DNA of 13,781 bases from a virus (IMGVR_UViG_2531839665_000026:1-13781), one strand, 5' to 3'; numbered from the stretch's first letter, positions 449 through 13,781 are shown. A program made the numbers and translations. The notes: generated by a model not told the origin, from the letters alone.

Positions 449-2200
449 ATGATTCAGGACGCTTTTGTGCGCCAGCGTGCGCGGCAACTTTACTGGCAGG
501 GTTATCCGCCCGCAGAAATATCACGTCTGATGGGAATAAACCCGAACACGATTTATGCGTGGAAAAAACGCGACCAGTGGGATGAAACGCCACCCGTGCA
601 GCGTGTCACGCAGTCCATCGATGCGCGCCTCATCCAGCTCACTGAAAAACAGAATAAAACAGGTGGTGACTTCAAGGAAATAGACCTGCTGACCCGGCAG
701 CTTAAAAAACTGCATGATGGCCAGCCGGATGCGACGGCCACAGGAAAGAAAGGCCGGGCGAAAAAACTCAAAAATCATTTCACGCCGGAACAGATTGCCG
801 CACTGCGGGAAAAAATCATCAGCAGGCTGGAGTGGCATCAGCGGGGCTGGTTTGACTCCCTGACCCTTTGCAGGGAAGCCGGGATACGTAACAGGATGAT
901 CCTGAAATCCCGACAGATTGGGGCGACCTGGTATTTTGCACAGGAAGCACTGCTGATGGCGCTGCGTGACGATGTGGCGCAACCTTACCAGCGTAACCAG
1001 ATTTTTTTGTCTGCGTCGCGTCGTCAGGCGTTCCAGTTTAAAAGCATTATTCAGAAGGCCGCGGCTGAAGTTGATGTGGAGCTGAAAGGGGGCGATAAAA
1101 TCATCCTCTCAAACGGCGCAGAGCTGCATTTTCTCGGCACTTCTGCTGCGTCGGCACAGTCCTATACGGGCAATTTTTATTTTGATGAATTTTTCTGGGT
1201 CAGTCGCTTTGCCGAACTGCGCAAGGTGGCTGGCGCTATGGCAACCCTCAGCGGACTGCGGCGCACCTACTTCTCCACGCCATCCACCGAAACGCACGAG
1301 GCATACGCCTACTGGAACGGCGACCGCTGGAACGAGAAAAAGGCCTCGCATAAACGCCAGCGTTTTTCTGTGGACTGGAAAACGCTGCATAACGGGCTTA
1401 TCTGCCCTGACCGGACGTGGCGGCAAATTGTCACGCTGGAAGATGTGGTTAATCACGGCTGGAAACACACCGATATTGACGAAATCCGTGATGAAAACAC
1501 CGAAGACGAGTTCCTCAATCTCTATATGTGTGAGTTTGTTCGCGAAGGGGAATCGGCATTTAACCTGAATATCCTGATTGGCTGCGGTGTTGACGGATAC
1601 GACGACTGGAAAGACTGGAAACCTTTTGCTCCCCGCCCGATGGGGAATCGTCCGGTATGGATTGGGTATGACGCAAACGGCAGCAGTGGCAACGGGGACA
1701 GCGGCGCTGTGTCCGTGGTGGTTCCTCCGGCTGTTCCTGGTGGCCGTTTTCGAACGGTGGAGACGCGACGCGTTCAGGGGCTGGAGTTTGAAGAACAGGC
1801 CAGAGTCATTGAAGAGTTCACGTGTCGCTACAACGTGGAACACATCGGCATTGATGTGACGGGCGGGAACGGGGAGGCTGTTTATCAGATAGTGAAACGG
1901 TTTTTCCCTGCCGCTATTCCGTACACCTTCACGCTGTCATCCAAACGGTCGCTGGTACTGAAAATGCAGCAAATAATGCGTGCCGGACGGTGGGAATACG
2001 ATCGCGCCGAACGCGAGCTGGTCGCGGCCTTTAACGCCGTGCGTAAGGTGAAAACACCGGGTGGCTTTATCACTTACGAAACGGACCGCGCGAGGGGGAT
2101 CAGCCACGGCGACCTTGCGTGGGCAACCATGCTTGCTGTCATTAACGAACCAATTGGCGGCGAAGGAGAAAAACGAGCGTTTCACGGTTATGGAGTTCTG
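449..2200 (+). CDS. P: Terminase large (ATPase/nuclease) subunit gpP-like; no in-frame stop, frame continues into the portal
   Basis: N-terminal HTH-like segment (YWQGYPPAEISRLMGINPNTIYAWKKRDQWDE), Walker A-like KSRQIGATWYF, Walker B-like FYFDEFFW, and acidic nuclease-domain motifs (WIGYDANGSSGNGDSGAVSVV, HGDLAWATMLAV). The 584 codons before the internal ATG at 2201 compare with about 590 aa for P2 gpP. AGGGGG lies 4 nt before the ATG at 449. Confidence 0.85.
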
Positions 2201-3247
2201 ATGAGCAGAAAAAATAAAAAAGTGCGCATGAGTTCACGCATTGATCTCGCTGATGCGCTCAGGAAAGAATCATCGCTCAGTGCATTCACATTTGATGGTC
2301 CTTATCGCCTGACCGGGCATGACCTGCTGGACAATATGTACTGTGCTGATAACGGGCGGTGGTATGAAACCCCGGTGGACTGGTACGGTCTGGCAAGAGC
2401 CGCCCGGCAAACGTCCTGGCATCAGTCTGCGCTTTACTTTAAGCGCAATGTATTGCTCGGTTGCTACATCCCGCACCCGCTGCTTTCCCGGCAGGATTTC
2501 TCGGCGCTGGCGCTGGACTGGTTTGTGTTCGGTAACGCATTCCTTGAGCTTCGGAGCAATATGCTCGGCGAACCACTTAAATTACGGCACGCACTGGCGA
2601 AATACATGCGACGCGGAAGCGATCTTGAATCATGGTGGTATGTGCAGGATGGCAAGGACGCGTTTCAGTTTCGCCCTGGCAAAGTGTGCCACCTGATGAA
2701 TCCGGACATTAACCAGGAAATTTACGGCATGCCGGAATATCTCGGCGCATTACTCTCGGCCAGCCTGTCTCATTCGGCGGACATGTTCAGAAAACTGTAT
2801 TACGACAATGGATCCCACGCCGGGTGCATCATCTACATCGGTGCAGCGCAGGTAAACCGCGAAAGCATGGACTCCCTGAAAGAAACGCTACAGGGTGCGC
2901 GTGGTGGTGGTGCGTTTAAAAACGTGCTCATTCATGCGCCCAACGGGGGCAAAGAGGGGGTGCAAATTTTGCCGTTCCAGCAGATCACCGCAAAGGATGA
3001 GTTCATGAATGTTAAGGCGGCATCCCGTGATGATGTGCTGGCTGCGCACCGCGTTCCGCCGCAACTGATGGGGGCGATGCCGGGTGAAAAAAGTGCGTTT
3101 GGTGATGTGGAGAAGGCCGCGCGGGTTTACGCAATTAACGAGCTGATGCCCGTCATGGAGGCCATGAAGCATATCAATGACTGGCTTGGCGAAGAGGTGA
3201 TCCGATTTAACCCTTACGCACTGCTGGACACCCAGCCCACATCCTGA
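2201..3247 (+). CDS. Q: Portal protein gpQ-like (348 aa if initiated at the internal ATG at 2201)
   Basis: Follows P on the same strand as in P2. ATG at 2201 is preceded by GGAG at 2192-2195 (5-nt spacer). Length of 348 aa compares with about 344 aa for P2 gpQ. It has a basic N-terminus (MSRKNKKVRMSSR) followed by a conserved-looking core. Stop codon TGA at 3245-3247. Confidence 0.7.
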   Translation: MSRKNKKVRMSSRIDLADALRKESSLSAFTFDGPYRLTGHDLLDNMYCADNGRWYETPVDWYGLARAARQTSWHQSALYFKRNVLLGCYIPHPLLSRQDFSALALDWFVFGNAFLELRSNMLGEPLKLRHALAKYMRRGSDLESWWYVQDGKDAFQFRPGKVCHLMNPDINQEIYGMPEYLGALLSASLSHSADMFRKLYYDNGSHAGCIIYIGAAQVNRESMDSLKETLQGARGGGAFKNVLIHAPNGGKEGVQILPFQQITAKDEFMNVKAASRDDVLAAHRVPPQLMGAMPGEKSAFGDVEKAARVYAINELMPVMEAMKHINDWLGEEVIRFNPYALLDTQPTS

Positions 3248-3738: not shown

Positions 3739-4077
3739 CTATAGCTTTGATGCAGGCTGGGCTAGGTCTCCTTTGATGCCAGTGTTTACAACCTGACAAG
3801 CCTCTTTGAGTACCCAGTCAACAGCGTCTTTCCATGCTCCGGTTTCGGCTGGCGGATTCTCACGCTTTACCAGTTCATAGAATCGTACTGCTCTAACCAG
3901 TCCATCTGACGGTTTTGCCTGTAGTGCAGCCTGAGCTATGCGGTATGCCTGGAGCATACGGGCGTCGTTGATATCCATTCCGAACGGAATTTCTGATGAT
4001 TGTGATTCTGCATCTTCAAGCCTGGCAATTTCTTTACGTAAAAAGTATTTCAACTCTTGTTTTTGTTTTCTGTTCAT
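3739..4077 (-). CDS. Hypothetical protein, 112 aa, last gene of the cargo operon
   Basis: ORF with AGGGAA-type SD 6 nt upstream of ATG at 4077. Charged and probably helical ([26 protein letters not shown]...). No family recognised. AT-rich relative to the phage backbone. Confidence 0.55.
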
Positions 4078-4405
4078 GCGTTTTTCCCTTTTTGTCTGTC
4101 ACTTCTCTCCTGATAATTTCATTGCACAAATCCACGCACTCATTGCAGATGCAAACAGACGGTCCGGCAATCACCTTTGTGACTTCGTACTGAGATTTAT
4201 TGCAGAAGCTGCAATAAATCGTCTCCTCGCCTGAAGTCCATGTTTTGCTGGTTTCGCCAGACATCAGTTGTTTGAGGTCTTTTTCACGACGAAGAACTAT
4301 CTGGCCACATTCAGCTATTTTTTGGATGTTGACATTTTCTTCTTTCGCCAGCGCTTCCATCCGCTCAATCAGTCGCTGCGCTTTTTCTCTGTCAATGTGT
4401 TGCAT
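4034..4405 (-). CDS. Small protein (123 aa) with a ClpX-type C4 zinc-ribbon domain
   Basis: Residues around 62-100, [39 protein letters not shown], align almost position for position with the N-terminal zinc-binding domain of E. coli ClpX as I recall it ([40 protein letters not shown]). GGGGG SD lies 5 nt before ATG at 4405. The last 44 nt overlap the next gene. Confidence 0.65.
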
Positions 4406-4468: not shown

Positions 4469-4780
4469 TTATTCGGGAAATAACGCCCTGATATTTCCGG
4501 CCATCCGACTGGTTATCTGTGTGGTTGGTACTGGCTGTGACGCGGGGCGTTCTGTCCTGGTTTGTGTCACTGATAACGCCTCATCGTCAGCCCATGCAGC
4601 CAGTCGGTAAGCCTCTGCCGGATTCATTTTCAGAAGTGCCAGCCCGGCCAGAAAAGCCACACGTTGGCCGCTTTTGCGGGCTTCTGGTGTAAGGCTGTCC
4701 AGCCAGGCGCATGCTTCGCCTTCGTTCTTGACGGCGGCGGGCTTCAGATAGAAACTTATCCGTCTGGTTGGTGTCGTCAT
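4469..4780 (-). CDS. parR: ParR-like small DNA-binding protein (103 aa from internal ATG)
   Basis: Translation from ATG at 4780 (MTTPTRRISFYLKPAAVKNEGEACAWLDSLTPEARKSGQRVAFLAGLALLKMNP...NIRALFPE) parallels plasmid R1 ParR as I recall it (..RTIAFKLNP...CDTLDSIPQGERSRLNRAALTAGLALYRQDP...NILRSLFPKE). GGAG lies 7 nt upstream, inside the end of parM. There is a 4-nt gap after the parM stop. The upstream 45 codons of the ORF-track entry overlap parM and are not used. Confidence 0.65.
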   Translation of the reverse strand: MTTPTRRISFYLKPAAVKNEGEACAWLDSLTPEARKSGQRVAFLAGLALLKMNPAEAYRLAAWADDEALSVTQTRTERPASQPVPTTQITSRMAGNIRALFPE

Positions 4781-4784
4781 TGGT

Positions 4785-5744
4785 TTACTCCTTGTCCATT
4801 GCGTACAGCCCATTAACCAGAGCAAACTGTGGCACCCCGTCCGCGATGAAAGTCGCATTAACTCCGCAGGCTTCGCGGATAGCGGGTGCCGCAATCTCCG
4901 CCCCGCCACCGACAACCATCACCCGCCCGTAACCCGAAAAACCCGCCAGCGCGCGGATCACTCGTTGTTTCAGTGTTTCTTCCTTTTCACGAATAACCGC
5001 CATCAGGCTGTCGTAATGCGCGTCATTGTGGATGTGCTGGCGCAGCCAGGCTTCATCGTGGCGATGTTCGATAATGGTATTGGCGATATGGTGACTGGTA
5101 CGCATACCGTTAGTGGCCATCACCGACAGTACGGCATCGGCTATCAGGGAAACGCCTACGTGTGGATCGCAAAACACCTGGCTGATACCTGCCAGTTGTC
5201 CCTGGACCTTTGCCACATCCAGCGTGGTTCCGCCTAAATCCACAATCAGCAGGGATTCAAACGGACTCATGTCAGCCAGAGCCTTAAAGCCAGCCGGAAT
5301 GGATTCAGGCATAACCCGCACGTTACGGATAGTGAATGCTTCGCCGTTCTGGTACTCCACCGGGCGCATAACGTTCGCTTTTTTGCGGTTGATGTTGGCC
5401 ATGTCCGGCTGTGCGTTTGTGTCGAAATACTCGCTCAGTGGCAGGGTGACAACCACATCCACCTCCTGTGGCGTGATGCCTGATTTGACCAGTGCGTGAT
5501 GAATGGCAATGACATTCACATCGCTGTATTGGTATTGCGTGTCGGTCGTCTGGACAAAGCGATCGCTGACCGGATCAAAACCGTAGCGCACGCCATCAAG
5601 CATGTAGTTCGCGGGCTGCGTGCCACTGAACGGCGCAGACCATTCCGACTTGAAGCTGTTCGGGCTGATGGCGTTGCGGCGTTCGCCGTTCTCAGTCCAT
5701 GCCAGCTTGATGTTGGTGGAGCCGTCGTCGATACAAATTTTCAT
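4785..5744 (-). CDS. parM: ParM/StbA-like actin-fold segregation ATPase (319 aa)
   Basis: Alignable along its whole length to plasmid R1 ParM (StbA) as I recall it. Shared blocks include IDDGSTNIKL, YSDVNVIAIHHAL, VMPESIPAG, DLGGTTLD and VVGGGAE. Length of 319 aa compares with about 320 aa for R1 ParM. Confidence 0.8.
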   Translation of the reverse strand: MKICIDDGSTNIKLAWTENGERRNAISPNSFKSEWSAPFSGTQPANYMLDGVRYGFDPVSDRFVQTTDTQYQYSDVNVIAIHHALVKSGITPQEVDVVVTLPLSEYFDTNAQPDMANINRKKANVMRPVEYQNGEAFTIRNVRVMPESIPAGFKALADMSPFESLLIVDLGGTTLDVAKVQGQLAGISQVFCDPHVGVSLIADAVLSVMATNGMRTSHHIANTIIEHRHDEAWLRQHIHNDAHYDSLMAVIREKEETLKQRVIRALAGFSGYGRVMVVGGGAEIAAPAIREACGVNATFIADGVPQFALVNGLYAMDKE

Positions 5745-5820: not shown

Positions 5821-8643
5821 TCATATATCGCTGCGCGTTTTTTGCTCATTTACGGGATTCGTGAGTCCCGTTTCTGTCTGTTTTTTGTTTCCACTGGTCA
5901 GGCCACCCTGCAGCAGGTCTGCTTTGCGGTTGGCGCGTTCAGTGGTTTCACTGATTCTCTGTGCGTGCTCTGCGTCACGGATGGCGCGCAGCATGTCAGA
6001 AAGCACGGTAACGGGGGTTTTCATGGTGTTCTGGTCCTGCTGAAGTGTGGATGCCAGACGTGCGGCGGCTTCGGGGTCTGATGCCCCCAGTTGTTCCAGA
6101 TAGCTGGCGACCGGGTTATGGCGGATCTCTGTGCTGCTTACGCCGTGATTACGGCTCAGGCGCTGCCAGAGCTGCGTGATTCGGCTGTCCGGGCGGGTAT
6201 CCGGTTTGCGTACAATTTCAAATCCCTGCGGTGCAATGATGCTGCCGTCAACGTACAGGCTGCCGCCCCGTAGCAGGTGCTGCATCTGCTGTTCACCGAT
6301 ATGCAGGCCGAGAGATTCGGCAGACTCCCGCCATTCTTTAGCGAGTAATTCGTGGTTATCAGGCAAAGGCCGCTGCTGTTTGCGGCTCTGTGTCCAGCTC
6401 TGCATTTCATCACTGCTGTTTTTTGCCTGTTTGTCACGAAGCGAACGCATCAGCGCCCGGCGTTCGTGCCGTTTCAGTGAGCGCATCCATTCGTTCACTT
6501 CAACGCCATCAGGGAGCTGCGGCCACGGTGCTGGCTGTTCTTCCGGCTGTTCTGTCCCGTTGTTGTTCGTTTCCTGTACACGGGGACAGTTATTGCCACG
6601 AGTCCAAGGGGCGGCAGGGCCGCCCTGAAGGTCAAAACCATTTTCGCGGGCGCTGTCTTCCGCTTCCGGTTTACGTCTTACCAGCTTCCAGTTATCCGGA
6701 TGTGTGCACACACGGGAAGACTCCCCGATGAGTGGTGACCAGATCCCGTAAATCTGTACGCTCTGTTCGCCGTAATCGTTCAGCTCATCTGCGAGGTCGT
6801 AGGCGGTGCGAATCAGGTAGTCTTTGCGTGGAACAAGTACGCCGCCCTGTTTCTCAATGTAGGAGGCAAAACATCCGGCATCAGCGGCAGCGAGCACTGC
6901 ATCCATTGCGTCATCCTTCAGCCGTTGCGGGCCTTCCGGGTTGCGTGCCATCTGGCTGGCAAGGCGACGCAGTTCACGCCACACCTGACGGGAGGGGATG
7001 CCAAAGAACTGGAACTGGCGGACCCGGTGAAGGCGCGCCCAGCCAATGGCGCGTTCCACGCTCTCGGTCATTGATTTTCCGGTTTCGTGGTCAACGCGTG
7101 GTTTGCCTGTTTTCGGGTCGATGCCATCCACGGCGCGGCTGTCCAGGTTCTTTCCGATGTAGGTGGCGATGTAGCTGGTTGGCGTGCCTTTTGAGCCGTC
7201 GACGTACTCCGCTTTAAAACGCGGAGTTATGTCATCGCCCAGCTCGTGGCGGTCTTCCTGAATGGCAATATCGCAGACGTGGGACACGATGGTTTCAATC
7301 TCGTCCGGATGTGCAAAGACCATCATATGCCAGTGCACGGTGCCGTCATGGTGAGGCTCCACCGTGCGGATGCCATACCAGCGCAGGCCGTCGCGGTTCA
7401 GTTTCTTGCGGACCGCCGCAAAAAACGTGTTAACCAGGTAATCGCTGGAGTCGCGCATGGTGGCCCCGTTCCATTTGGGATTCGGATGACCGTTCTCTGT
7501 TGTAGCGTGGTATTTTGACGGGCAGGTGACAGTCAGAAACACCGCTCTGTCGCCACGGGCTTCGGCCAGAAGTTCCAGTCCCTTCATGGTGGCCATCATT
7601 TCTGCCTTACGGTGAACCGGGTTACTTACTCCCGCGTAATACACTGTCTCGAGATCAATCGTGAACCCGTCTTCATTTTCCAGCATGAAACTTTTCAGGA
7701 AATCGCGTGTTTTCTCGCGCTGTGCGCGAAACTCGCTTAACGCGTCCTGGCTCAGATAGGGTGATGTTTTTCTGGAAACCAGACAGGCGGCGCGGAGTTG
7801 TTCTTCTCTCCACTCGCAACGTAACAGCCACAATTTGCGTTTCCACCAGTCCGCACAGGTCAGGCGAAGGATTGCACCCGGCAGCAGTTCTGTGTCCGGT
7901 TCGTTCCTCCGGTCTTTGTCTGTTGTCAGTGCGTCATAATGTGGAGGCATGGTGTGCAGATGTAACGCCATGCGAGCCAGCAGCTGATACGCCTTCAGCG
8001 TTATATCCATGGTCAGCTCGCCATCGGTCGCGCCAAAGCCATCGCAGAGTTTTTCGAAGGTGCTGCTGAACATTGCCGCCGTCATGACGGCCAGTGTCTG
8101 TATCTGGTGTTTGTTGAGCTGCGGCAGGTAAAGTAAATCGTCCAGACGTTCACGTCCGGCAAGGGAGCGATAACCCGGAGTCAGCCAGCGTCCGTCAGTG
8201 CGGGCCAGACGTTCCAATATTTTGCGCAGGGTTCCGCGTGCATAGCGTTCCGCCTGCCAGCTCTTTTTGCCTTTCCGGCGATCGGCTTCCTGCTTTTTGC
8301 GCAGGAAGGAGAGGTGGCGAATAAGCGGATCGCGCAGATAGGACGGCAGCAGGCGCAGCGAGGCCATGGCTTCATCCACCGCACCGCGTGCCTGTTTTCT
8401 GGCGTCTCTGGCCAGTGTGATGGTTTTGTCCTGCTTTTCCTGTGCGTCCAGGCTTTTATTAATCAGGTTGCCCAGCGGCGTTGCGGAGAACGCCGCATCA
8501 GCCATTTCCTGGCGTCGCTCGTTCTCTACCCGGTAAGCATCCAGCCAGGAGGAAAGCGCGGATTCAGGTGCGGGGATCCCCGTACCTTCACGCCCTACTG
8601 CGTGGCGCGGTTGTTGCCAGTCCCTGATGTACTCTGTCGTCAT
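5821..8643 (-). CDS. A: Rolling-circle replication initiator gpA-like (HUH endonuclease), 940 aa
   Basis: Long minus-strand ORF with an HUH-type motif (TVHWHMMVF) and paired tyrosines (TSYIATYIGK), as in the P2 gene A protein. It sits downstream of cox and the small early genes, as in P2. It is longer than P2 gpA (about 761 aa) because of a C-terminal extension. Confidence 0.85.
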   Translation of the reverse strand: MTTEYIRDWQQPRHAVGREGTGIPAPESALSSWLDAYRVENERRQEMADAAFSATPLGNLINKSLDAQEKQDKTITLARDARKQARGAVDEAMASLRLLPSYLRDPLIRHLSFLRKKQEADRRKGKKSWQAERYARGTLRKILERLARTDGRWLTPGYRSLAGRERLDDLLYLPQLNKHQIQTLAVMTAAMFSSTFEKLCDGFGATDGELTMDITLKAYQLLARMALHLHTMPPHYDALTTDKDRRNEPDTELLPGAILRLTCADWWKRKLWLLRCEWREEQLRAACLVSRKTSPYLSQDALSEFRAQREKTRDFLKSFMLENEDGFTIDLETVYYAGVSNPVHRKAEMMATMKGLELLAEARGDRAVFLTVTCPSKYHATTENGHPNPKWNGATMRDSSDYLVNTFFAAVRKKLNRDGLRWYGIRTVEPHHDGTVHWHMMVFAHPDEIETIVSHVCDIAIQEDRHELGDDITPRFKAEYVDGSKGTPTSYIATYIGKNLDSRAVDGIDPKTGKPRVDHETGKSMTESVERAIGWARLHRVRQFQFFGIPSRQVWRELRRLASQMARNPEGPQRLKDDAMDAVLAAADAGCFASYIEKQGGVLVPRKDYLIRTAYDLADELNDYGEQSVQIYGIWSPLIGESSRVCTHPDNWKLVRRKPEAEDSARENGFDLQGGPAAPWTRGNNCPRVQETNNNGTEQPEEQPAPWPQLPDGVEVNEWMRSLKRHERRALMRSLRDKQAKNSSDEMQSWTQSRKQQRPLPDNHELLAKEWRESAESLGLHIGEQQMQHLLRGGSLYVDGSIIAPQGFEIVRKPDTRPDSRITQLWQRLSRNHGVSSTEIRHNPVASYLEQLGASDPEAAARLASTLQQDQNTMKTPVTVLSDMLRAIRDAEHAQRISETTERANRKADLLQGGLTSGNKKQTETGLTNPVNEQKTRSDI
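5849..5883. repeat. Repeat R2: second copy of the 35-bp unit, lying inside the last codons of gene A
   Basis: TTACGGGATTCGTGAGTCCCGTTTCTGTCTGTTTT. 29 of 35 positions match R1, with most differences in the hairpin loop. It sits 72 bp to the right of R1. Confidence 0.6.
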
Positions 8644-8649
8644 ACTGAT

Positions 8650-9015
8650 TTACTTCGTCATGCCATTCAGGGTGTCACGGCAAACGGCAGCCAGACGCTG
8701 AATTTCCAGCACGGTGTCTTCTGTGTCGGCATGGCGATGTGTGATGCGGATGCTGTCGGCAATCACATCGACGATTGCAGAGGATGGGCGCTGGTAAATG
8801 CCAATAACGGACGGGGTGCCACCTTCAATGCGGTAAAGCCTGTAATTTCCCTCGTGGCTGTCAATCATGTAGCGACCATCAATAACAATCTTTCCGTCAG
8901 CGAGCTGCGGTACAGGCAGGGATTTCAGGTACATGTCATAACGATCACGCACGCGAGCGGCAAGATCACGCTCTGTGTTGAGCAGGTATTCAAGAAAGTC
9001 GTTGGCGAGAATCAT
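8650..9015 (-). CDS. Hypothetical early protein, 121 aa
   Basis: ORF with AAGAGGA SD 8 nt before ATG at 9015. Its stop is 7 nt before the A start. No family recognised. Confidence 0.6.
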   Translation of the reverse strand: MILANDFLEYLLNTERDLAARVRDRYDMYLKSLPVPQLADGKIVIDGRYMIDSHEGNYRLYRIEGGTPSVIGIYQRPSSAIVDVIADSIRITHRHADTEDTVLEIQRLAAVCRDTLNGMTK

Positions 9016-9087
9016 TGCGGCAATCCTCTTGTTACAGATGTGCGAAGGCCTCCCGCCGCAAGGTGCAGGAAAGGCCCGGAACAGGAA

Positions 9088-9318
9088 TTAATGGAGTTTG
9101 TTTTGCTGCTGGATGAGCTGTTGAAGCTCGTGCAGATCATCCGCCAGATAACTGAAAACAGAGGCGGAATAAATGTTTGATAGTGCGTGGCTGCGCTCAT
9201 GCAGCATATTGATGTGCATGATTTGCGCGACGCGTGATGCGCGGAAAAGTCTACGGTTGATTTCAGTCTGGATGTGACGACGCGCAGCGTATGCGCGCTG
9301 TTGTTTGCGGTTTGCCAT
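9088..9318 (-). CDS. Hypothetical early protein, 76 aa
   Basis: ORF with AGAGG SD 7 nt before ATG at 9318. Basic N-terminus (MANRKQQRAYAARRHIQTEINRR). Confidence 0.55.
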   Translation of the reverse strand: MANRKQQRAYAARRHIQTEINRRLFRASRVAQIMHINMLHERSHALSNIYSASVFSYLADDLHELQQLIQQQNKLH

Positions 9319-9361
9319 GGTGTGGCCTCTTTGCTCGGTGATAGAAATAGCTCACCATCCA

Positions 9362-9404
9362 GAGTTGAGAATCTCGGGGTGGCGAGACGTACAGGGTTCT
9401 CAAC
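9362..9404. repeat. Inverted repeat GTTGAGAA ... TTCTCAAC (25-nt loop), with a third direct copy of GTTGAGAATC at 9540-9549
   Basis: GTTGAGAATC at 9364-9373, its inverse TTCTCAAC at 9397-9404, and GTTGAGAATC again at 9540-9549. Both direct copies are preceded by CTTTGCTC. Confidence 0.55.
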
Positions 9405-9495
9405 ACCGGAGAGCAAAGAATCCGGCCCGACCGAAGTCGGCCCCGTACGCCCCGCCATAATTCTGACGCGAAAAAGACGTGGCAATACAGTACGC

Positions 9496-9518
9496 ACAAA
9501 AAAACCGCTGGCGCGGTT
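9496..9518 (-). terminator. Intrinsic terminator on the minus strand, downstream of the 67/88/99-aa gene block
   Basis: Stem AACCGC (9503-9508) / GCGGTT (9513-9518), loop TGGC. The plus-strand A7 run (9498-9504) becomes the U tract of a minus-strand transcript. Confidence 0.6.
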
Positions 9519-9590
9519 ATGCGCTTTGCTCTGTATCGGGTTGAGAATCCCGGCACCCGTTTTATGAGGTGCAGCGGAAATGTAACCTGA

Positions 9591-9619
9591 CCGATTGCGG
9601 CATGGCAAGCGGTTTTTTT
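9591..9619 (+). terminator. Intrinsic terminator on the plus strand, ending an unannotated plus-strand transcript
   Basis: CCGATTGC (9591-9598) / GCAAGCGG (9605-9612) with one A-G mismatch, loop GGCATG, followed by T7 (9613-9619). Confidence 0.5.
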
Positions 9620-9640
9620 GTGTGTGCATGTTCTGGTTTC

Positions 9641-9940
9641 TTACTGGTTCAGAAAAAAATCAAAAACCTTGTCAATGCGTTGCAGCAGCTCTTGCTGTAT
9701 TGCTTCCGGCGTTTCCGGTTCGCCGGGTGCCTCCAACGTCGCGCAGAAATCAGCGATTTCATGATGGAGTGTCAGGCGAATGGCAGGAGCCGTGGTTCTG
9801 GCGTGCTCCAGCTCATCCAGCAGTGCCAGCACAGCAGACGGCGAGAGCATTGCGCGAAACGCCAGTAATTTTTGAGGCGTTGCCATTCGTTGCAGGGCAA
9901 ATGCCAGTTCGCGTAGCTTCTGGTGGTTGATGGTGCTCAT
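9641..9940 (-). CDS. Hypothetical protein, 99 aa
   Basis: ORF whose ATG overlaps the upstream stop as ATGA (9937-9940). No family recognised. Confidence 0.55.
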   Translation of the reverse strand: MSTINHQKLRELAFALQRMATPQKLLAFRAMLSPSAVLALLDELEHARTTAPAIRLTLHHEIADFCATLEAPGEPETPEAIQQELLQRIDKVFDFFLNQ

Positions 9941-10203
9941 GTTCTGGCTTCCTTCAGTAGCTGGTTAAACATGTGAGTAAGTGGATTGCTACACCCGAAC
10001 GGCATCGGGTTTACGTGGTAAGAAGCCTGGCCTCCAGTTTTGCGAGCGCGACCACCTGTGCTGCGGTTTGTTCTGATGACTAAGCCGCCGCGCCAAAGTT
10101 GGCGTAACTCAGCATTAATGGCTGTGGTTGGAGTATTCAGTGCTGCGGCGATCTCTCCGCCGCTACAACCCGGATGAGTAGCGATGTAGTCCAGAATGGT
10201 CAT
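9937..10203 (-). CDS. Putative winged-helix DNA-binding protein, 88 aa
   Basis: ATGA overlap with the upstream gene (10200-10203). The N-terminal LDYIATHPGCSGGEIAAALNTPTTAINAELRQL is typical of a wHTH recognition segment. This is a weak fold-level inference. Confidence 0.5.
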   Translation of the reverse strand: MTILDYIATHPGCSGGEIAAALNTPTTAINAELRQLWRGGLVIRTNRSTGGRARKTGGQASYHVNPMPFGCSNPLTHMFNQLLKEART

Positions 10204-10403
10204 CTGCGTGGCTCCTGTACCTGTCGGATAAGATTCACCCGCGCCACGTTGGTGGCGCAGAAGTAAGTGCCGTCAGTGAGGTAGATGTGGTGTGCATCCT
10301 TTTCCGAACGATGTTTGTCGATAGTGGTAATCAGGCGTTCGTCGACCTCGTATTCGCGCCCTCTGGAGGTAAAGCGAACGACGGGAAAATGCTTAATTGC
10401 CAT
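10200..10403 (-). CDS. Hypothetical protein, 67 aa
   Basis: Strong AAGGAGG SD 5 nt before ATG at 10403. First gene of a three-gene translationally coupled block. Confidence 0.55.
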   Translation of the reverse strand: MAIKHFPVVRFTSRGREYEVDERLITTIDKHRSEKDAHHIYLTDGTYFCATNVARVNLIRQVQEPRR

Positions 10404-10489
10404 TACGCCTCCTTGGCGTGTGCGAATACCTCCGCGAATGCGGATTGTTTTTACATTTTCTTATTTAATCTGTGGTTTTATTTGCTCTG

Positions 10490-10603
10490 TTATTCGCCAG
10501 TGAAAAAGCGTTCAATCTTTTTTATTGAATGAATAATTCGCATAATCCCAATAGCGCAGGCCACCGAAATAATCAGAACAAGCCATGAGATAAATATACT
10601 CAT
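10490..10603 (-). CDS. Small hydrophobic peptide, 37 aa (below the ORF-track cutoff)
   Basis: ATG at 10601-10603 overlaps the stop of the upstream 80-aa gene as ATGA. Translation MSIFISWLVLIISVACAIGIMRIIHSIKKIERFFTGE has one predicted transmembrane helix and a basic tail. Confidence 0.45.
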   Translation of the reverse strand: MSIFISWLVLIISVACAIGIMRIIHSIKKIERFFTGE

Positions 10604-10842
10604 GCGATATTCCCCAGCTCATACGGTTCAATATGTTCCCCGCATTCTGCGGCACAGATCAGCTCGGAAAGTTCGTTAAGTGCATCCAGATCATCAGCGT
10701 AAAAAGCCACGTCATACAGACTTCGGATTGCTCTGGTCAATGAGTCACGGGCCGCACGTTCAGCATGAGCGCCTGATGCACTTAAGCGAAAATAAAAGCG
10801 CTCAAGTGCTTTGTTAATGAGAGTTTTATATTCTTTGCCCAT
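10600..10842 (-). CDS. Hypothetical protein, 80 aa
   Basis: ORF starting 11 nt after the stop of the upstream gene. No family recognised. Confidence 0.5.
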   Translation of the reverse strand: MGKEYKTLINKALERFYFRLSASGAHAERAARDSLTRAIRSLYDVAFYADDLDALNELSELICAAECGEHIEPYELGNIA

Positions 10843-10853
10843 CGCAACGCCCT

Positions 10854-11141
10854 TTAATCTGCTTTCTGAATTTCAGTTTCTGAATCCATACAGATAATTT
10901 CGATATAGGGTTTATCGCCATTAACCTGACGAGCCTTTTCAGCTTCGCTAATGATTTCGCGTACGGTCTGGTACGGAAGTTCCACGATCAGTCGCGTGCC
11001 GTTCAGATAAACGTAAGTGGCTTCGGCGGCTCCGTTTTTCCCCGCCGGAGCCACTCCATCAATAGCGGATGCGCGTAATAACAGTTCACCGCGAAAATCA
11101 ATAAAGCGGATAAATACACCTTGAGTATGGTCTTTAGTCAT
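10854..11141 (-). CDS. Hypothetical protein, 95 aa (internal start of the 115-codon ORF-track entry)
   Basis: ATG at 11141 is preceded by AGGTG (5-nt spacer) and avoids overlap with the upstream gene. The longer start at 11201 would overlap that gene by 50 nt. Confidence 0.5.
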   Translation of the reverse strand: MTKDHTQGVFIRFIDFRGELLLRASAIDGVAPAGKNGAAEATYVYLNGTRLIVELPYQTVREIISEAEKARQVNGDKPYIEIICMDSETEIQKAD

Positions 11142-11151
11142 AAAGCACCTG

Positions 11152-11493
11152 TTATAAATCAGCCTGTTTAATAAAACTCTGTCCACGCAGCAGACGATCA
11201 ACCGTGCGAAGCGCTTCGTATAATGTGAAATCCTGCCCGAACTGATTGTCGCCGCTGCTCAGAGCAAAAATGCGGTTTCCGGTAAACGGATTGCGCGGGC
11301 ATTTGTGGACCACGATTCCAGCTTTCTCAATCAGCCAGGCATGCTCGCCGATTTGTTTTACTGGGTAGCCATCCGGCGTTGCGTGTGTATCACTCAGGCT
11401 GTAGCGGATGTTGCTGCGTGATGCACTGGTAGCAAAACGGTTAGCGTGGCGTTCTGCACCATTGCGAAAGCGTGAATTACGTTGCTGTTTCAT
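11152..11493 (-). CDS. Hypothetical early protein, 113 aa
   Basis: ORF in the early operon between cox and A. It may correspond positionally to one of the P2 early genes (B region), but I cannot confirm this by sequence. Confidence 0.5.
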   Translation of the reverse strand: MKQQRNSRFRNGAERHANRFATSASRSNIRYSLSDTHATPDGYPVKQIGEHAWLIEKAGIVVHKCPRNPFTGNRIFALSSGDNQFGQDFTLYEALRTVDRLLRGQSFIKQADL

Positions 11494-11494
11494 G

Positions 11495-11602
11495 TTAAAG
11501 ACTCTGTACAGATTTAATTATTCCGGCATAGAGGCCGAACTCAAAATATTTGCGATTAAATCGCATCGCATTGTTTTCACGTTTTGCGGACTGCTGGTTC
11601 AT
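11495..11602 (-). CDS. Small ORF, 35 aa (below the ORF-track cutoff)
   Basis: GGAGG lies 8 nt before ATG at 11602. Its stop TAA is 1 nt before the ATG of the 113-aa gene. Translation MNQQSAKRENNAMRFNRKYFEFGLYAGIIKSVQSL. Confidence 0.4.
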   Translation of the reverse strand: MNQQSAKRENNAMRFNRKYFEFGLYAGIIKSVQSL

Positions 11603-11653
11603 TTTCGTTTGCCTCCGCACATGAGAATTGCGCCGCTTAAGAGGTAACCGAAG

Positions 11654-11676
11654 TTAATTGATAGTATTACAATTAA
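11654..11676. repeat. Inverted repeat TTAATTG-N9-CAATTAA in an intergenic gap of the early operon
   Basis: Read directly. It lies between the 68-aa membrane protein gene and the 35-aa ORF. It may be an operator or an internal promoter element. Confidence 0.4.
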
Positions 11677-11745
11677 CATAAGGTCCAATTTGTCCATGCC
11701 ACACATAATTACCCTCATTGCAGTAGTTGTGGGTTGTCAGGTTTC

Positions 11746-11952
11746 TCACCCGATAAACCAGATAACAAACGCTATCAACATCGCCCCAATAGCTGCCGGG
11801 AAAAGTCCTTTGGTATAAGCGGCGATATATTCAATGCTGAGTTCAATAAAGCGTTCTTTATGTCCCGTTAACTTGCGAAACAAATAGATCTCTATTACGC
11901 CTATCTCAATAAAAACAAGGGTCAGAATGGCGCTGATGATATGGCTGGTCAT
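11746..11952 (-). CDS. Small membrane protein, 68 aa, two predicted transmembrane helices
   Basis: Starts 6 nt after the cox stop. Two hydrophobic stretches (IISAILTLVFIEIGVIEIYLF and AAIGAMLIAFVIWFIG). Confidence 0.5.
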   Translation of the reverse strand: MTSHIISAILTLVFIEIGVIEIYLFRKLTGHKERFIELSIEYIAAYTKGLFPAAIGAMLIAFVIWFIG

Positions 11953-11958
11953 TTATGA

Positions 11959-12246
11959 CTAAAGTCCCAGCCACAACAACCATGCGTCGCGGCGTTCTTT
12001 CGGTTGCTCAAAAAACGCTTTGCGCATGCCTTCGTTAAATGCTGGCAGATATACCCAGTTTTCTGATGCACGCGTCTTTACTGAACCTGGTTTCACAAAG
12101 TCAATTGTTGGTAGCTTTGCTGCGTCAATCATGGTTCTGACTGTGGATTCCTTGCGGCCGATCATCTTGGCGAATAGTTGATATGGCACCGCTTCAAGTG
12201 GATATGGTGCTACCTGAATGAACCCCCCAAGCTCTGATTCGCTCAT
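11959..12246 (-). CDS. cox: Cox-like excisionase / early-operon regulator (95 aa)
   Basis: Matches P2 Cox as I recall it (VPYQLFAKMIGRKESTVRTMIDAAKLPTIDF...ENWVYLPAFNEGMRKAFFEQPKERRDAWLLWLGL against ...IPYQEFAKLIGKSTGAVRRMIDKGKLPVIDM...EYWVYLPAWNNGLKLAYESRPKEIRDGWLMWLGL). AGGGAGA SD. Divergent from C. Confidence 0.85.
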   Translation of the reverse strand: MSESELGGFIQVAPYPLEAVPYQLFAKMIGRKESTVRTMIDAAKLPTIDFVKPGSVKTRASENWVYLPAFNEGMRKAFFEQPKERRDAWLLWLGL

Positions 12247-12320
12247 TGTGGTAATCTCCCTAATTCGTTCGAATGGCTCAAAATGGCTTATATCGGCTTA
12301 TTTGAGTGTTTTTATGTTTG

Positions 12321-12366
12321 TGCCCGATGTGGCATGTTGTGATGGAGGACATGCCCGATATGGCAT
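12321..12366. promoter_or_regulatory. Putative immunity operator: two 15-bp direct repeats in the cox/C switch region
   Basis: TGCCCGATGTGGCAT (12321-12335) and TGCCCGATATGGCAT (12352-12366), 31 bp apart. The second overlaps the likely C start. A consensus TTGACA on the minus strand at 12370-12375 abuts the second repeat. P2 C is known to bind a pair of direct repeats at the early promoter. Confidence 0.5.
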
Positions 12367-12680
12367 CTTTGTCAAGCATGGGTGAAAAATTTCGCCTGAT
12401 TCGTGAAGCAGAAGGTATGACCCGCCAGGAGTTTGCGGATTGTGTTGGGCTGCCTTATGGGACGGTAACTAACTATGAGGTGAGGGGGAAGCAAGTAACA
12501 GAGGGTGCCTTACTTAAGGTTACGAAACACCCTAAATTTAAGAAGTATGCTTATTGGTTATCAACAGATGAAACGATGCCGGAGGTCGGGCAAATTTCTC
12601 CGGCTCTCTCTCTTGATGGTTCCTGCAATTCGGAGGGAGATCGCGTTTCAACCGAAACAATCCAAAAATTATCCCGCTGA
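12360..12680 (+). CDS. C: C repressor-like immunity repressor (106 aa from ATG at 12360)
   Basis: MGEKFRLIREAEGMTRQEFADCVGLPYGTVTNYE...KFKKYAYWLSTDETMPEVGQISPALS parallels P2 C as I recall it (ISEKIVLMRKSEYLSRQQLADLTGVPYGTLSYYE...QFTKYTLWFMTNQIAPESGQIAPALA). The start is ambiguous between 12342, 12360 and 12378; the ORF-track start at 12306 is unlikely. Confidence 0.8.
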   Translation: MASLSSMGEKFRLIREAEGMTRQEFADCVGLPYGTVTNYEVRGKQVTEGALLKVTKHPKFKKYAYWLSTDETMPEVGQISPALSLDGSCNSEGDRVSTETIQKLSR

Positions 12681-12776
12681 GGCCAGAAAACTGGTTAGAC
12701 CTGCTTTTTGTCTGGTCTGATTATTGCTGGAAAGAGGCTGGAGAAATTGTAGAGCGGTTCATTGGAGGGCTTCGTA

Positions 12777-13781
12777 ATGTCGATTAAGAAGCTCGAAGAT
12801 GGTCGTTATTTGCTGGACATCAGGCCGAACGGACGCAAGGGAAAGCGCGTGCGTAAGGTATTTGACAAAAAATCGGTAGCGGTGGCCACTGAACGCTACA
12901 TCATGGCGAACGCTGAAAAGCGGGAATATATACAGGGCTACCGTGATCGTCGAACGCTAAATGATTTGCTTGAGTTGTGGTGGATGTATCACGGCCAGCA
13001 CAGGCGTAAGGCGGAAGAAGACCGAAAACAACTGCGCAACATAATCAATGAGCTTGGCGCTGATATGCAGGCTGTGGATCTTGATAAGCTGAAAATTATC
13101 GCGTGGCGTTCTCAAAAGATAGCTGATGGATTGAAACCGTCATCTGCTAACAGGTACATGAATCGGTTATCCGGAATGTTTACCGTGCTGAAAAAAATAG
13201 GTCTTTGGGATGCAGAACATCCAGTAAGGGGAATTTCTATTCTTTATGTATCTCCACGAGAAATGGCGTTCCTGTCACAGAAGGAAGTGGCGCTATTGCT
13301 CGATACACTGGAGGGCGACTACTGGCGTGTTGCGCTTTTGTGTTTAAGCACAGGGGCGCGCTGGAGTGAAGCTTGTAAGCTTCGTGGTGAACAGATAGTT
13401 CATAACCGTGTAACGTTTCTTGAAACCAAAAATGGCCGGAAGAGAACAGTGCCAATTTCGCAGGCAGTTTGTGAGGCGATCAAAACCAGAGAAACAGGCG
13501 GCTTGTTTGAGGTGAAGTACCGGGAATTCTGCCTGGCGCTGAAAAGAGTTAAGCCCGATTTACCAAAAGGCCAGGCTGCACATGTGCTGCGGCATACGTT
13601 CGCCAGCCATTTTGTGATGAACGGAGGAAACATTATTGCGCTTCAGAAGATTCTTGGTCACGCAACCATTCAGCAAACAATGGCATATGCGCATTTTGCA
13701 CCGGATTACCTGCAGGATGCGGTGGCCCTTAATCCGCTGAAAGGTGGCGTAAGTGTCCACGCAGTGTCCACGGGGGATTAA
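12777..13781 (+). CDS. int: P2-type tyrosine integrase (334 aa)
   Basis: From ATG at 12777 (GGAGGG SD with 7-nt spacer): MSIKKLEDGRYLLDIRPNGRKGKRVRKVFDKKS..., with the catalytic region ...LRHTFASHF...LGHATIQQTMAYAHFAPDYLQDAVALNP. This closely parallels P2 Int as I recall it. Stop codon at 13779-13781, the window edge. Confidence 0.9.
   Translation: MSIKKLEDGRYLLDIRPNGRKGKRVRKVFDKKSVAVATERYIMANAEKREYIQGYRDRRTLNDLLELWWMYHGQHRRKAEEDRKQLRNIINELGADMQAVDLDKLKIIAWRSQKIADGLKPSSANRYMNRLSGMFTVLKKIGLWDAEHPVRGISILYVSPREMAFLSQKEVALLLDTLEGDYWRVALLCLSTGARWSEACKLRGEQIVHNRVTFLETKNGRKRTVPISQAVCEAIKTRETGGLFEVKYREFCLALKRVKPDLPKGQAAHVLRHTFASHFVMNGGNIIALQKILGHATIQQTMAYAHFAPDYLQDAVALNPLKGGVSVHAVSTGD

Follow-up and report, generated by a model that had tools for sequence, protein, structure and literature searches.

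A small membrane protein gene next to DUF4754 in the early lytic operon of P88-like prophages

Small membrane proteins of bacteria and their phages

Type I toxins, which are often encoded on mobile elements including prophages, have fewer than 60 amino acids, a single transmembrane (TM) helix, and a short extension that carries charge (PMC12648545). The subject of this work, a 37-residue peptide that a P2-like prophage encodes in its early operon, resembles the members of this group (for example, Fst/Ldr, TisB, Hok, Ibs, ShoB, ZorO, and DinQ) in its size, its TM helix, and its charged extension. It shows, however, no sequence similarity to them, and no antisense or adjacent small RNA (sRNA) was detected at its locus. 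Unlike the type I toxin genes, the gene of the peptide has neither an independent promoter nor a long structured 5' untranslated region and is instead joined through an ATGA to its upstream neighbor in a long operon.

A second group of comparable size consists of the small membrane regulators AcrZ, MgrB, MgtS, MgtR, CydX, and KdpF, which are host-encoded and stress-regulated. Regulators of the AcrZ/MgrB/MgtS type belong to the same size class as the peptide (<50 amino acids) and have a single TM helix (PMC12648545). By analogy, the mode of action proposed below for the peptide would be similar to theirs, namely the binding of a larger membrane protein. The peptide has no homology to these regulators and is instead encoded by a phage, within an early lytic operon. 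Searches for similarity to a described family of small regulators gave no hit below E = 0.04 in any library.

Among phage proteins, lambda CIII is a 54-residue amphipathic inhibitor of the membrane protease FtsH. CIII, too, is small, made early by its phage, and active at the inner membrane, and the peptide may, by analogy, also have a host protein as its target. CIII is amphipathic rather than transmembrane and has no homology to the peptide, which makes this comparison a pure analogy, and no CII-like regulator was identified in the operon of the peptide. The CII protein of phage 186 is described as being degraded by the membrane proteases FtsH and RseP (PMC7708051), and a target of this kind is thus conceivable in the P2 family.

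The closest positional comparison is provided by fil and dhr of phage 186 and orf78 of phage P2. These small, non-essential genes end the first block of the early operon and occupy the same position as the peptide gene, after cox/apl and before the break to the replication block. According to the record annotations, 186 Fil blocks cell division when it is overexpressed and Dhr depresses host replication, which suggests that this operon position holds small host-takeover genes. Orf78, Fil, and Dhr themselves were rejected as counterparts of the peptide as they have no homology to it and lack a hydrophobic helix.

The peptide gene, its operon, and its family

The window (the whole analyzed stretch of viral DNA, 13,781 nucleotides, IMGVR_UViG_2531839665_000026) is the early region of a P88-like prophage (Xuanwuvirus, Peduoviridae, P2-like). 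The 751 bases around the open reading frame (ORF) of the peptide match phage P88 and its relatives with 89-96% identity. The same bases match 1367 of 5426 complete E. coli genomes (about a quarter), and carriers of P88-type prophages include O157:H7 and ST131 strains. The peptide thus ranks among the most widespread uncharacterised small membrane proteins of the species.

The features of the window that bear on the peptide are listed in Table 1. The C repressor and int genes run divergently on the plus strand and thereby define the minus-strand operon as the early lytic one. On the minus strand, cox is followed by the 68-amino acid gene, DUF4761, phrog_3800, DUF4754, the 37-amino acid ORF, the 86-nt spacer, and the 67-amino acid gene, after which come genes for a MarR-type wHTH protein, an Ead/Ea22-like protein, a Derepression-family protein, a 121-amino acid protein, and gpA. 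This order equals the layout of the P2/186 early lytic operon, and the original prediction was therefore correct in placing the peptide in a phage early operon. The peptide gene is the last gene of a conserved block consisting of DUF4761, phrog_3800, DUF4754, and the peptide.

Table 1. Features of the window around the peptide gene (positions in nucleotides unless residues are stated; a dot marks a feature without assigned strand)
Feature	Position	Strand	Evidence
Integrase int	12762-13781	+	
C-type immunity repressor (HTH)	12306-12680	+	family hits
cox, first gene of the early lytic operon	11959-12246	-	Phage_Cox 1.3e-22; phrog_272
Small membrane protein, 68 aa, directly after cox	11746-11952	-	phrog_14475; hydropathy
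DUF4754 protein (PF15946, phrog_2549), 80 aa, all-helical	10600-10842	-	family hits; AF2 pLDDT 89
GGGGAA Shine-Dalgarno-like purine run within the DUF4754 3' end	10610-10615	-	sequence; 99 loci
ATGA overlap, peptide ATG / DUF4754 TGA stop	10600-10603	-	sequence; 99/99 loci
Small membrane protein gene, 37 aa (P88 gp07 / WP_000021652.1 family)	10490-10603	-	ORF, annotation, conservation, hydropathy
Peptide parts: TM helix; amphipathic basic juxtamembrane helix; C-terminal FTGE motif	residues 3-21; residues 22-34; C-terminal end		
A-rich (operon strand) intergenic spacer, 86 nt, after the peptide gene	10404-10489	-	
5-bp hairpin/inverted repeat TCCGC-N4-GCGGA(GG)	10431-10444	.	conserved; fold
67-aa gene, phrog_3459, next in operon	10200-10403	-	ORF, PHROG match
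Derepression-family gene	9088-9318	-	PF25738
gpA replication endonuclease	5821-8643	-	

The original prediction also mentioned a second small membrane protein of 68 amino acids with two helices. Its ORF is present directly after cox, and the product has two hydrophobic segments (residues 5-23 and 49-68); it was found on at least 1000 contigs. The first of these segments carries two glutamates (E16 and E21). The gene is conserved in some of the relatives, for instance in Citrobacter phage Shae_phiSM, where it also follows cox, but it sits in a variable, immunity-proximal region.

An ORF of 37 codons is unremarkable on its own because the window contains 154 ORFs of at least 30 amino acids. Translation of the peptide ORF yields MSIFISWLVLIISVACAIGIMRIIHSIKKIERFFTGE. 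Residues 3-21 form a single strongly hydrophobic segment (Kyte-Doolittle 19-residue mean of 2.68), whereas the tail (residues 22-37) contains four K/R and two E residues and is amphipathic (muH 0.74). AlphaFold2 (AF2), run with an alignment of 21 sequences, predicts one continuous helix for residues 2-34 (pLDDT 87). Hydropathy and AF2 thus agree with the one TM helix and the basic C-terminal tail that had been predicted, and the product falls among the small (<60 amino acids) hydrophobic peptides with one TM helix.

The start of the gene is embedded in the end of DUF4754. The plus strand reads tcat at the overlap, that is, ATGA on the coding strand, and the ATG of the peptide therefore overlaps the TGA of the 80-amino acid gene, just as was claimed at the outset. 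The ATGA is retained in all 99 related loci. The last G of the Shine-Dalgarno (SD)-like run, which is read from 10615 to 10610, is separated from the ATG by 8 nt, and a GGGG, GGGA, GAGG, or GGAG run is present at SD distance in each of the 99 loci although the encoded C-terminus of DUF4754 varies between lineages. The arrangement is kept even where DUF4754 has diverged to 26% identity. An ATGA combined with an SD-like run is the classic arrangement for translational coupling. With both elements conserved in the relatives, and the SD-like run lying inside the upstream gene, the two genes have the form of a coupled pair, as originally proposed; the peptide is probably translated, and its translation would be coupled to that of DUF4754.

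The conservation of the ORF was assessed in 99 loci with a DUF4754-type gene, which were collected from IMG/VR, GenBank phages, E. coli genomes, and assemblies and are mostly close E. coli relatives (88-98% identical DNA). The ORF is intact in 98 of them, encoding 37 amino acids in 81 loci, 41 in 10, and 45 in 7. The single broken copy belongs to the phage 503458 record, in which DUF4754 is truncated as well and which looks error-ridden. Conservation in relatives was one of the points on which the original prediction had staked itself, and the frame is indeed kept.

For the close set, the ORF frame has a mean pN/pS of 0.25, against values of 0.9-1.3 for three of the remaining five frames. One antisense frame also reaches 0.27, but it contains stops and shares its third positions with the ORF frame. 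It was further found that 19 of the 38 distinct single-site variants are synonymous, whereas simulations using an identical transition/transversion mix predict 10.2 (P about 1.5e-4). Between divergent lineages, pS lies at 0.5-0.8 (near saturation) and pN at 0.10-0.31, and the peptide retains 51-76% identity where the adjoining DUF4754 shows only 26-44%. In the close E. coli set, the pN/pS of the peptide (0.25) compared with that of DUF4754 (0.06) indicates weaker selection on the peptide; this comparison is biased because the loci were picked by DUF4754 identity. On these comparative grounds, the intact ORF, the synonymous bias, and the divergent relatives together mark the 37-codon ORF as a genuine protein-coding gene under purifying selection. 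That the ORF is instead no functional protein gene, its frame being held open by a spacer or regulatory RNA role or simply by the close kinship of most loci, is highly improbable: its short length, the conserved hairpin just 3' of it, and a second frame that is also open over most of the region would fit such a view, but the synonymous excess is frame-specific and significant, the second frame has the pN/pS given below, the lineages near synonymous saturation keep the ORF, its start, the SD-like run, and the hydrophobic pattern, and a variant with an in-frame insertion of one codon exists (P0007).

The second open frame (47 amino acids, 10512-10655, minus strand) crosses the peptide gene. It was rejected as coding with a pN/pS of about 1.3, and in databases it appears only within frameshift chimeras with DUF4754.

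The gene has been annotated before. In phage P88, gp07 (YP_009113050.1) is annotated as a 'membrane protein' at exactly the same position, and in E. coli chromosomes the PGAP call is WP_000021652.1, a 'hypothetical protein'. The peptide is identical to WP_000021652.1 (locus L002) and differs from P88 gp07 in one residue (I27V). It is the same gene in every respect, with 37 residues and the same slot after DUF4754, and it belongs to this cluster both by its near-identical sequence and by its position, as a gene in the early operon that follows DUF4754 with a 4-nt overlap in 99 of 99 loci. The existing entries consist of a name only, with no function, family, or experiment attached. The exact 37-residue sequence occurs on at least 999 contigs of the protein collection, within a 183-member 90% cluster, under names that include 'Membrane protein' and 'Prophage membrane protein' and in E. 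coli, Shigella, and Salmonella. The original prediction had described the peptide as hidden below the ORF cutoff. This holds for some phage records, from which the gene is omitted (Shae_phiSM and phage 520873), but not for P88 and the PGAP-annotated chromosomes. Because many records already annotate it, it is not an overlooked gene; it has been missed by some pipelines but is not new. The peptide gene is thus an ordinary, already annotated hypothetical gene of a well-known kind, the small phage membrane proteins. Beyond the annotation, the present work gives evidence for coding, recognises two subfamilies (37 and 41 amino acids), and excludes a type I toxin-antitoxin layout.

Homologues were searched for with the peptide plus three in-frame upstream residues as the query. 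When 1.84 billion representatives were scanned exhaustively with an HMM, 18 hits were obtained, all of which belong to the peptide's own family, and this family is restricted to P88-type prophages of Enterobacteriaceae. Among the hits is a divergent 41-amino acid subfamily (for example, MNILISWLILILAIICAVGTMRIINGIKTIESLFTGDKRHK), whose genes lie in E. coli prophages after an 80-amino acid DUF4754-type gene, with the ATGA overlap and the SD-like run; in one such locus (L090), the neighboring glsA gene matches that of E. coli with 100% identity. The invariant or nearly invariant positions include F4, W7, L10, G19, R/K22, I23, I24, and K28. The juxtamembrane motif R-I-I-x-x-[IVL]-K-x-I-E-x-[FL]-F-T-G-[ED] is conserved, and its cytoplasmic part, I-E/D-x-[FL]-F-T-G-[ED], is common to both subfamilies. 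The 45-amino acid variants arise from a 1-nt deletion in a T-run at codons 33-34, by which FTGE is replaced with a 12-residue polar tail. This form was found in 7 of the 99 loci and in several database clusters. The C-terminal end is therefore either dispensable or these copies are decaying.

The A-rich spacer behind the peptide gene contains a short hairpin that is kept in every locus with a peptide gene (99), including divergent lineages with changed flanks. In the alignment of the hairpin, 98.9% of the cells are paired, and one compensatory pair (C:G to U:A) occurs in four distinct sequences. A T-run follows the hairpin on the plus strand only, antisense to the operon; the hairpin thus resembles an intrinsic terminator for antisense transcription and not for the operon. 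In P2 and 186, the first early block ends in a canonical intrinsic terminator, whereas here it ends in a short hairpin without a T-run on the operon strand. The gene content right after the hairpin varies and comprises the 67-amino acid gene, a 136-amino acid gene, or others. This slot is a point of cassette exchange, where extra genes (the 136-amino acid gene or others) separate the peptide gene from the 67-amino acid gene in about half of the relatives, among them loci L087, L088, L004, and L013.

Candidate roles of the peptide

We propose that the peptide is a 37-residue single-pass protein of the inner membrane. Following the positive-inside rule, its N-terminus would face outward and its basic amphipathic tail would lie in the cytoplasm. 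Removal of the C repressor would allow transcription of the gene from the early promoter, and ribosomes terminating at the TGA of DUF4754 would restart at the overlapping ATG, aided by the SD-like run. Such coupling would tie the output of the peptide to that of DUF4754. The role of the peptide would be an accessory, non-structural early function at the inner membrane, in which the TM helix and the conserved juxtamembrane motif would bind a partner, either a host membrane protein or DUF4754. In the latter case, the peptide would tether DUF4754 to the membrane. For this reading as a whole, that is, a genuine single-pass membrane protein gene that is coupled to DUF4754 and has an early accessory, partner-binding role, we estimate a probability of roughly 0.6.

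Generalised membrane damage by the peptide is considered less likely. Important to note here is that the architecture cannot separate the two kinds of role, since a TM helix with a short charged tail is also the design of type I toxins (Fst and Ldr). Two observations were counted in favor of a modulator over a pore: the cytoplasmic motif is kept across both subfamilies, and the gene belongs to a coupled operon in which its SD is accessible, and lacks the tight control by antisense RNA or SD sequestration that is typical of type I toxins (PMC12648545). The peptide gave only chance-level matches in Pfam and PHROGs (best E of 0.043-0.2, far below the curated cut-offs) and no hit in NCBIfam, PADLOC, or PDB sequences at E up to 10. 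Neither a paper nor a dataset on the peptide or its accession was found, and the literature on P88 and Xuanwuvirus yielded nothing functional. Neither homology nor a structural match nor a paper was found that points to a modulator or to a toxin role.

A narrower version of partner binding is that the peptide serves as the membrane anchor of a two-subunit module, its tail recruiting the soluble DUF4754 protein through coupled 1:1 synthesis. We regard this as possible but doubtful. The two genes are adjacent and joined by the ATGA in all 99 loci, down to 26% identity of DUF4754; DUF4754 is small, acidic, helical, and without recognisable activity of its own, and the tail of the peptide is basic and amphipathic. 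On the other hand, co-variation would be expected of an interface, but conservation is higher in the peptide than in DUF4754. Locus L099, which has the most divergent DUF4754-like gene recovered (33% identity), contains no peptide gene behind it, and DUF4754 can therefore exist without the peptide. Database entries of 103-128 amino acids labeled 'DUF4754' were considered as fusions of DUF4754 with the peptide but were rejected. They are frameshift chimeras in which mostly the alternative frame is read, and almost all of them form small clusters from read assemblies, most with a single member and the largest with 17; as chimeras, they were discarded as Rosetta-stone evidence.

Comparison of the DUF4754 model with the PDB (Foldseek) returned generic helical bundles only, with E above 1, and the structure thus provides no functional lead. 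No paper mentioning DUF4754 was found. A scan of genome contigs with DUF4754 gave two loci only. One locus (L003, NZ_JBQPOM010000071.1) is assigned to 'Vagococcus sp. WN89Y', a member of the Firmicutes, and carries a P88-type early region with a DUF4754 that is 96% identical, on a 226-kb contig; it is most likely a contamination or mis-binning.

The main rival to the proposed modulator is a membrane-damaging small toxin. Here, the peptide would resemble a type I toxin or a holin, oligomerise, and depolarise or permeabilise the inner membrane, with a shutdown of host metabolism, phage exclusion, or altered lysis timing as the consequence. With its 37 amino acids, one TM helix, and short charged tail, the peptide follows the general type I toxin design, and small membrane toxins borne on prophages are known (PMC12648545). 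The hydrophobic core is its best-conserved part, and the extreme C-terminus tolerates replacement by frameshift. The setting of the gene speaks against a toxin, which we consider unlikely: the gene lacks both its own promoter and an antisense RNA, and it is joined to DUF4754 by the ATGA, with an SD, in the early operon. Moreover, killing the host early would presumably cost the phage its burst, as a depolarising toxin made at this stage would work against a phage that still needs to replicate.

The two hallmarks of a type I toxin-antitoxin system were looked for separately. No adjacent or overlapping antisense RNA antitoxin was found. A consensus scan, which an unconventional sRNA could escape, detected no promoter-like site on the antisense (plus) strand in 9000-12800, and no Rfam family was found at the peptide locus. 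The terminator-like hairpin of the plus strand is located 3' of the ORF, and an RNA that ended at it would thus have no overlap with the ORF. An antisense sRNA in a type I arrangement was therefore rejected for want of an antisense promoter-like site, an Rfam hit, and an overlapping hairpin. The second hallmark, an independent mRNA with 5' structure or SD sequestration, was not found either. A hairpin that sequesters the SD and AUG is predicted in the window and in locus L090, but it does not exceed shuffled controls (z of -0.6 to -1.3), and some lineages lack it (locus L094). As to holins and antiholins, whose genes sit beside that of an endolysin in the lysis cassette and are expressed late, the peptide gene lies between cox and gpA, far from lysis genes, and no lysis genes were found in the window. 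The holin layout is thus absent from this early operon locus.

Exclusion is a common role among the small inner-membrane proteins of temperate phages. The peptide could accordingly be a factor of lysogenic conversion or superinfection exclusion that is expressed in the lysogen from an internal promoter and prevents the DNA of other phages from entering at the inner membrane. One promoter-like site is indeed located inside DUF4754 (10817-10789, operon strand), but it matches at only 9 of 12 positions, and such sites occur at chance level (5 found vs 4.5 expected). Furthermore, the gene lies inside a repressed early operon and is coupled to its upstream gene in arrangement, and PADLOC returned no hit. 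We therefore hold an exclusion factor to be very unlikely.

Returning to the partner-binding modulator, a bolder form of it may be formulated. DUF4754 and the peptide would constitute a dedicated two-gene early module of P88-type phages. The peptide, as the half with the higher conservation, would insert into the inner membrane and, by means of its conserved juxtamembrane motif, capture or inhibit one specific membrane machine of the host. Candidate targets may be a component of the divisome or the proteases FtsH and RseP, which control lysis-lysogeny regulators of the P2 family. This form is speculative and, in our estimate, rather improbable. If it were true, the module would represent the transmembrane equivalent of lambda CIII or 186 Fil, and the conserved hairpin would mark its functional end. 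Small phage membrane peptides have often proved to be precise inhibitors of host machines, and the conserved DUF4754-peptide pair, with its coupled arrangement, is thus a reasonable candidate for a targeted experiment.

Further features of the window

Several observations were made elsewhere in the window. An ORF of 932 amino acids (449-3247, plus strand) encodes the gpP terminase (Terminase_5/6N/6C) fused to the gpQ portal protein (Phage_portal). Relative to phage PhiR44_2, the window carries an additional A in GGAGAAAAACG, with the indel near 2169-2173, some 30 nt ahead of the site (CTGATGA) at which the terminase normally stops and the portal protein starts. The fusion stems either from a sequencing error in the homopolymer or from a true frameshift, the prophage then being in decay.

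Just upstream of the Derepression-family gene, strong Rfam matches to the C4 antisense RNA (RF01695, 78.5 bits) and isrK (RF01394, 62.8 bits) lie in tandem on the minus strand, at 9375-9462 and 9498-9572. Together with the Derepression gene, they look like an RNA control module in the style of the P1/P7 c4-ant system, placed in a P2-like early operon.

For a protein of 123 amino acids (4034-4405, minus strand), the match is confined to the N-terminal zinc-binding domain of ClpX (TIGR00382, residues 60-114, E of 1e-13); the protein could be a phage decoy or an adaptor for ClpX substrates. Finally, a ParM-like actin-type ATPase (4785-5744, minus strand) adjoins a Plasmid_stab_B protein (4469-4915, minus strand), and this integrated P2-like prophage thus carries a plasmid-style partition pair downstream of gpA.
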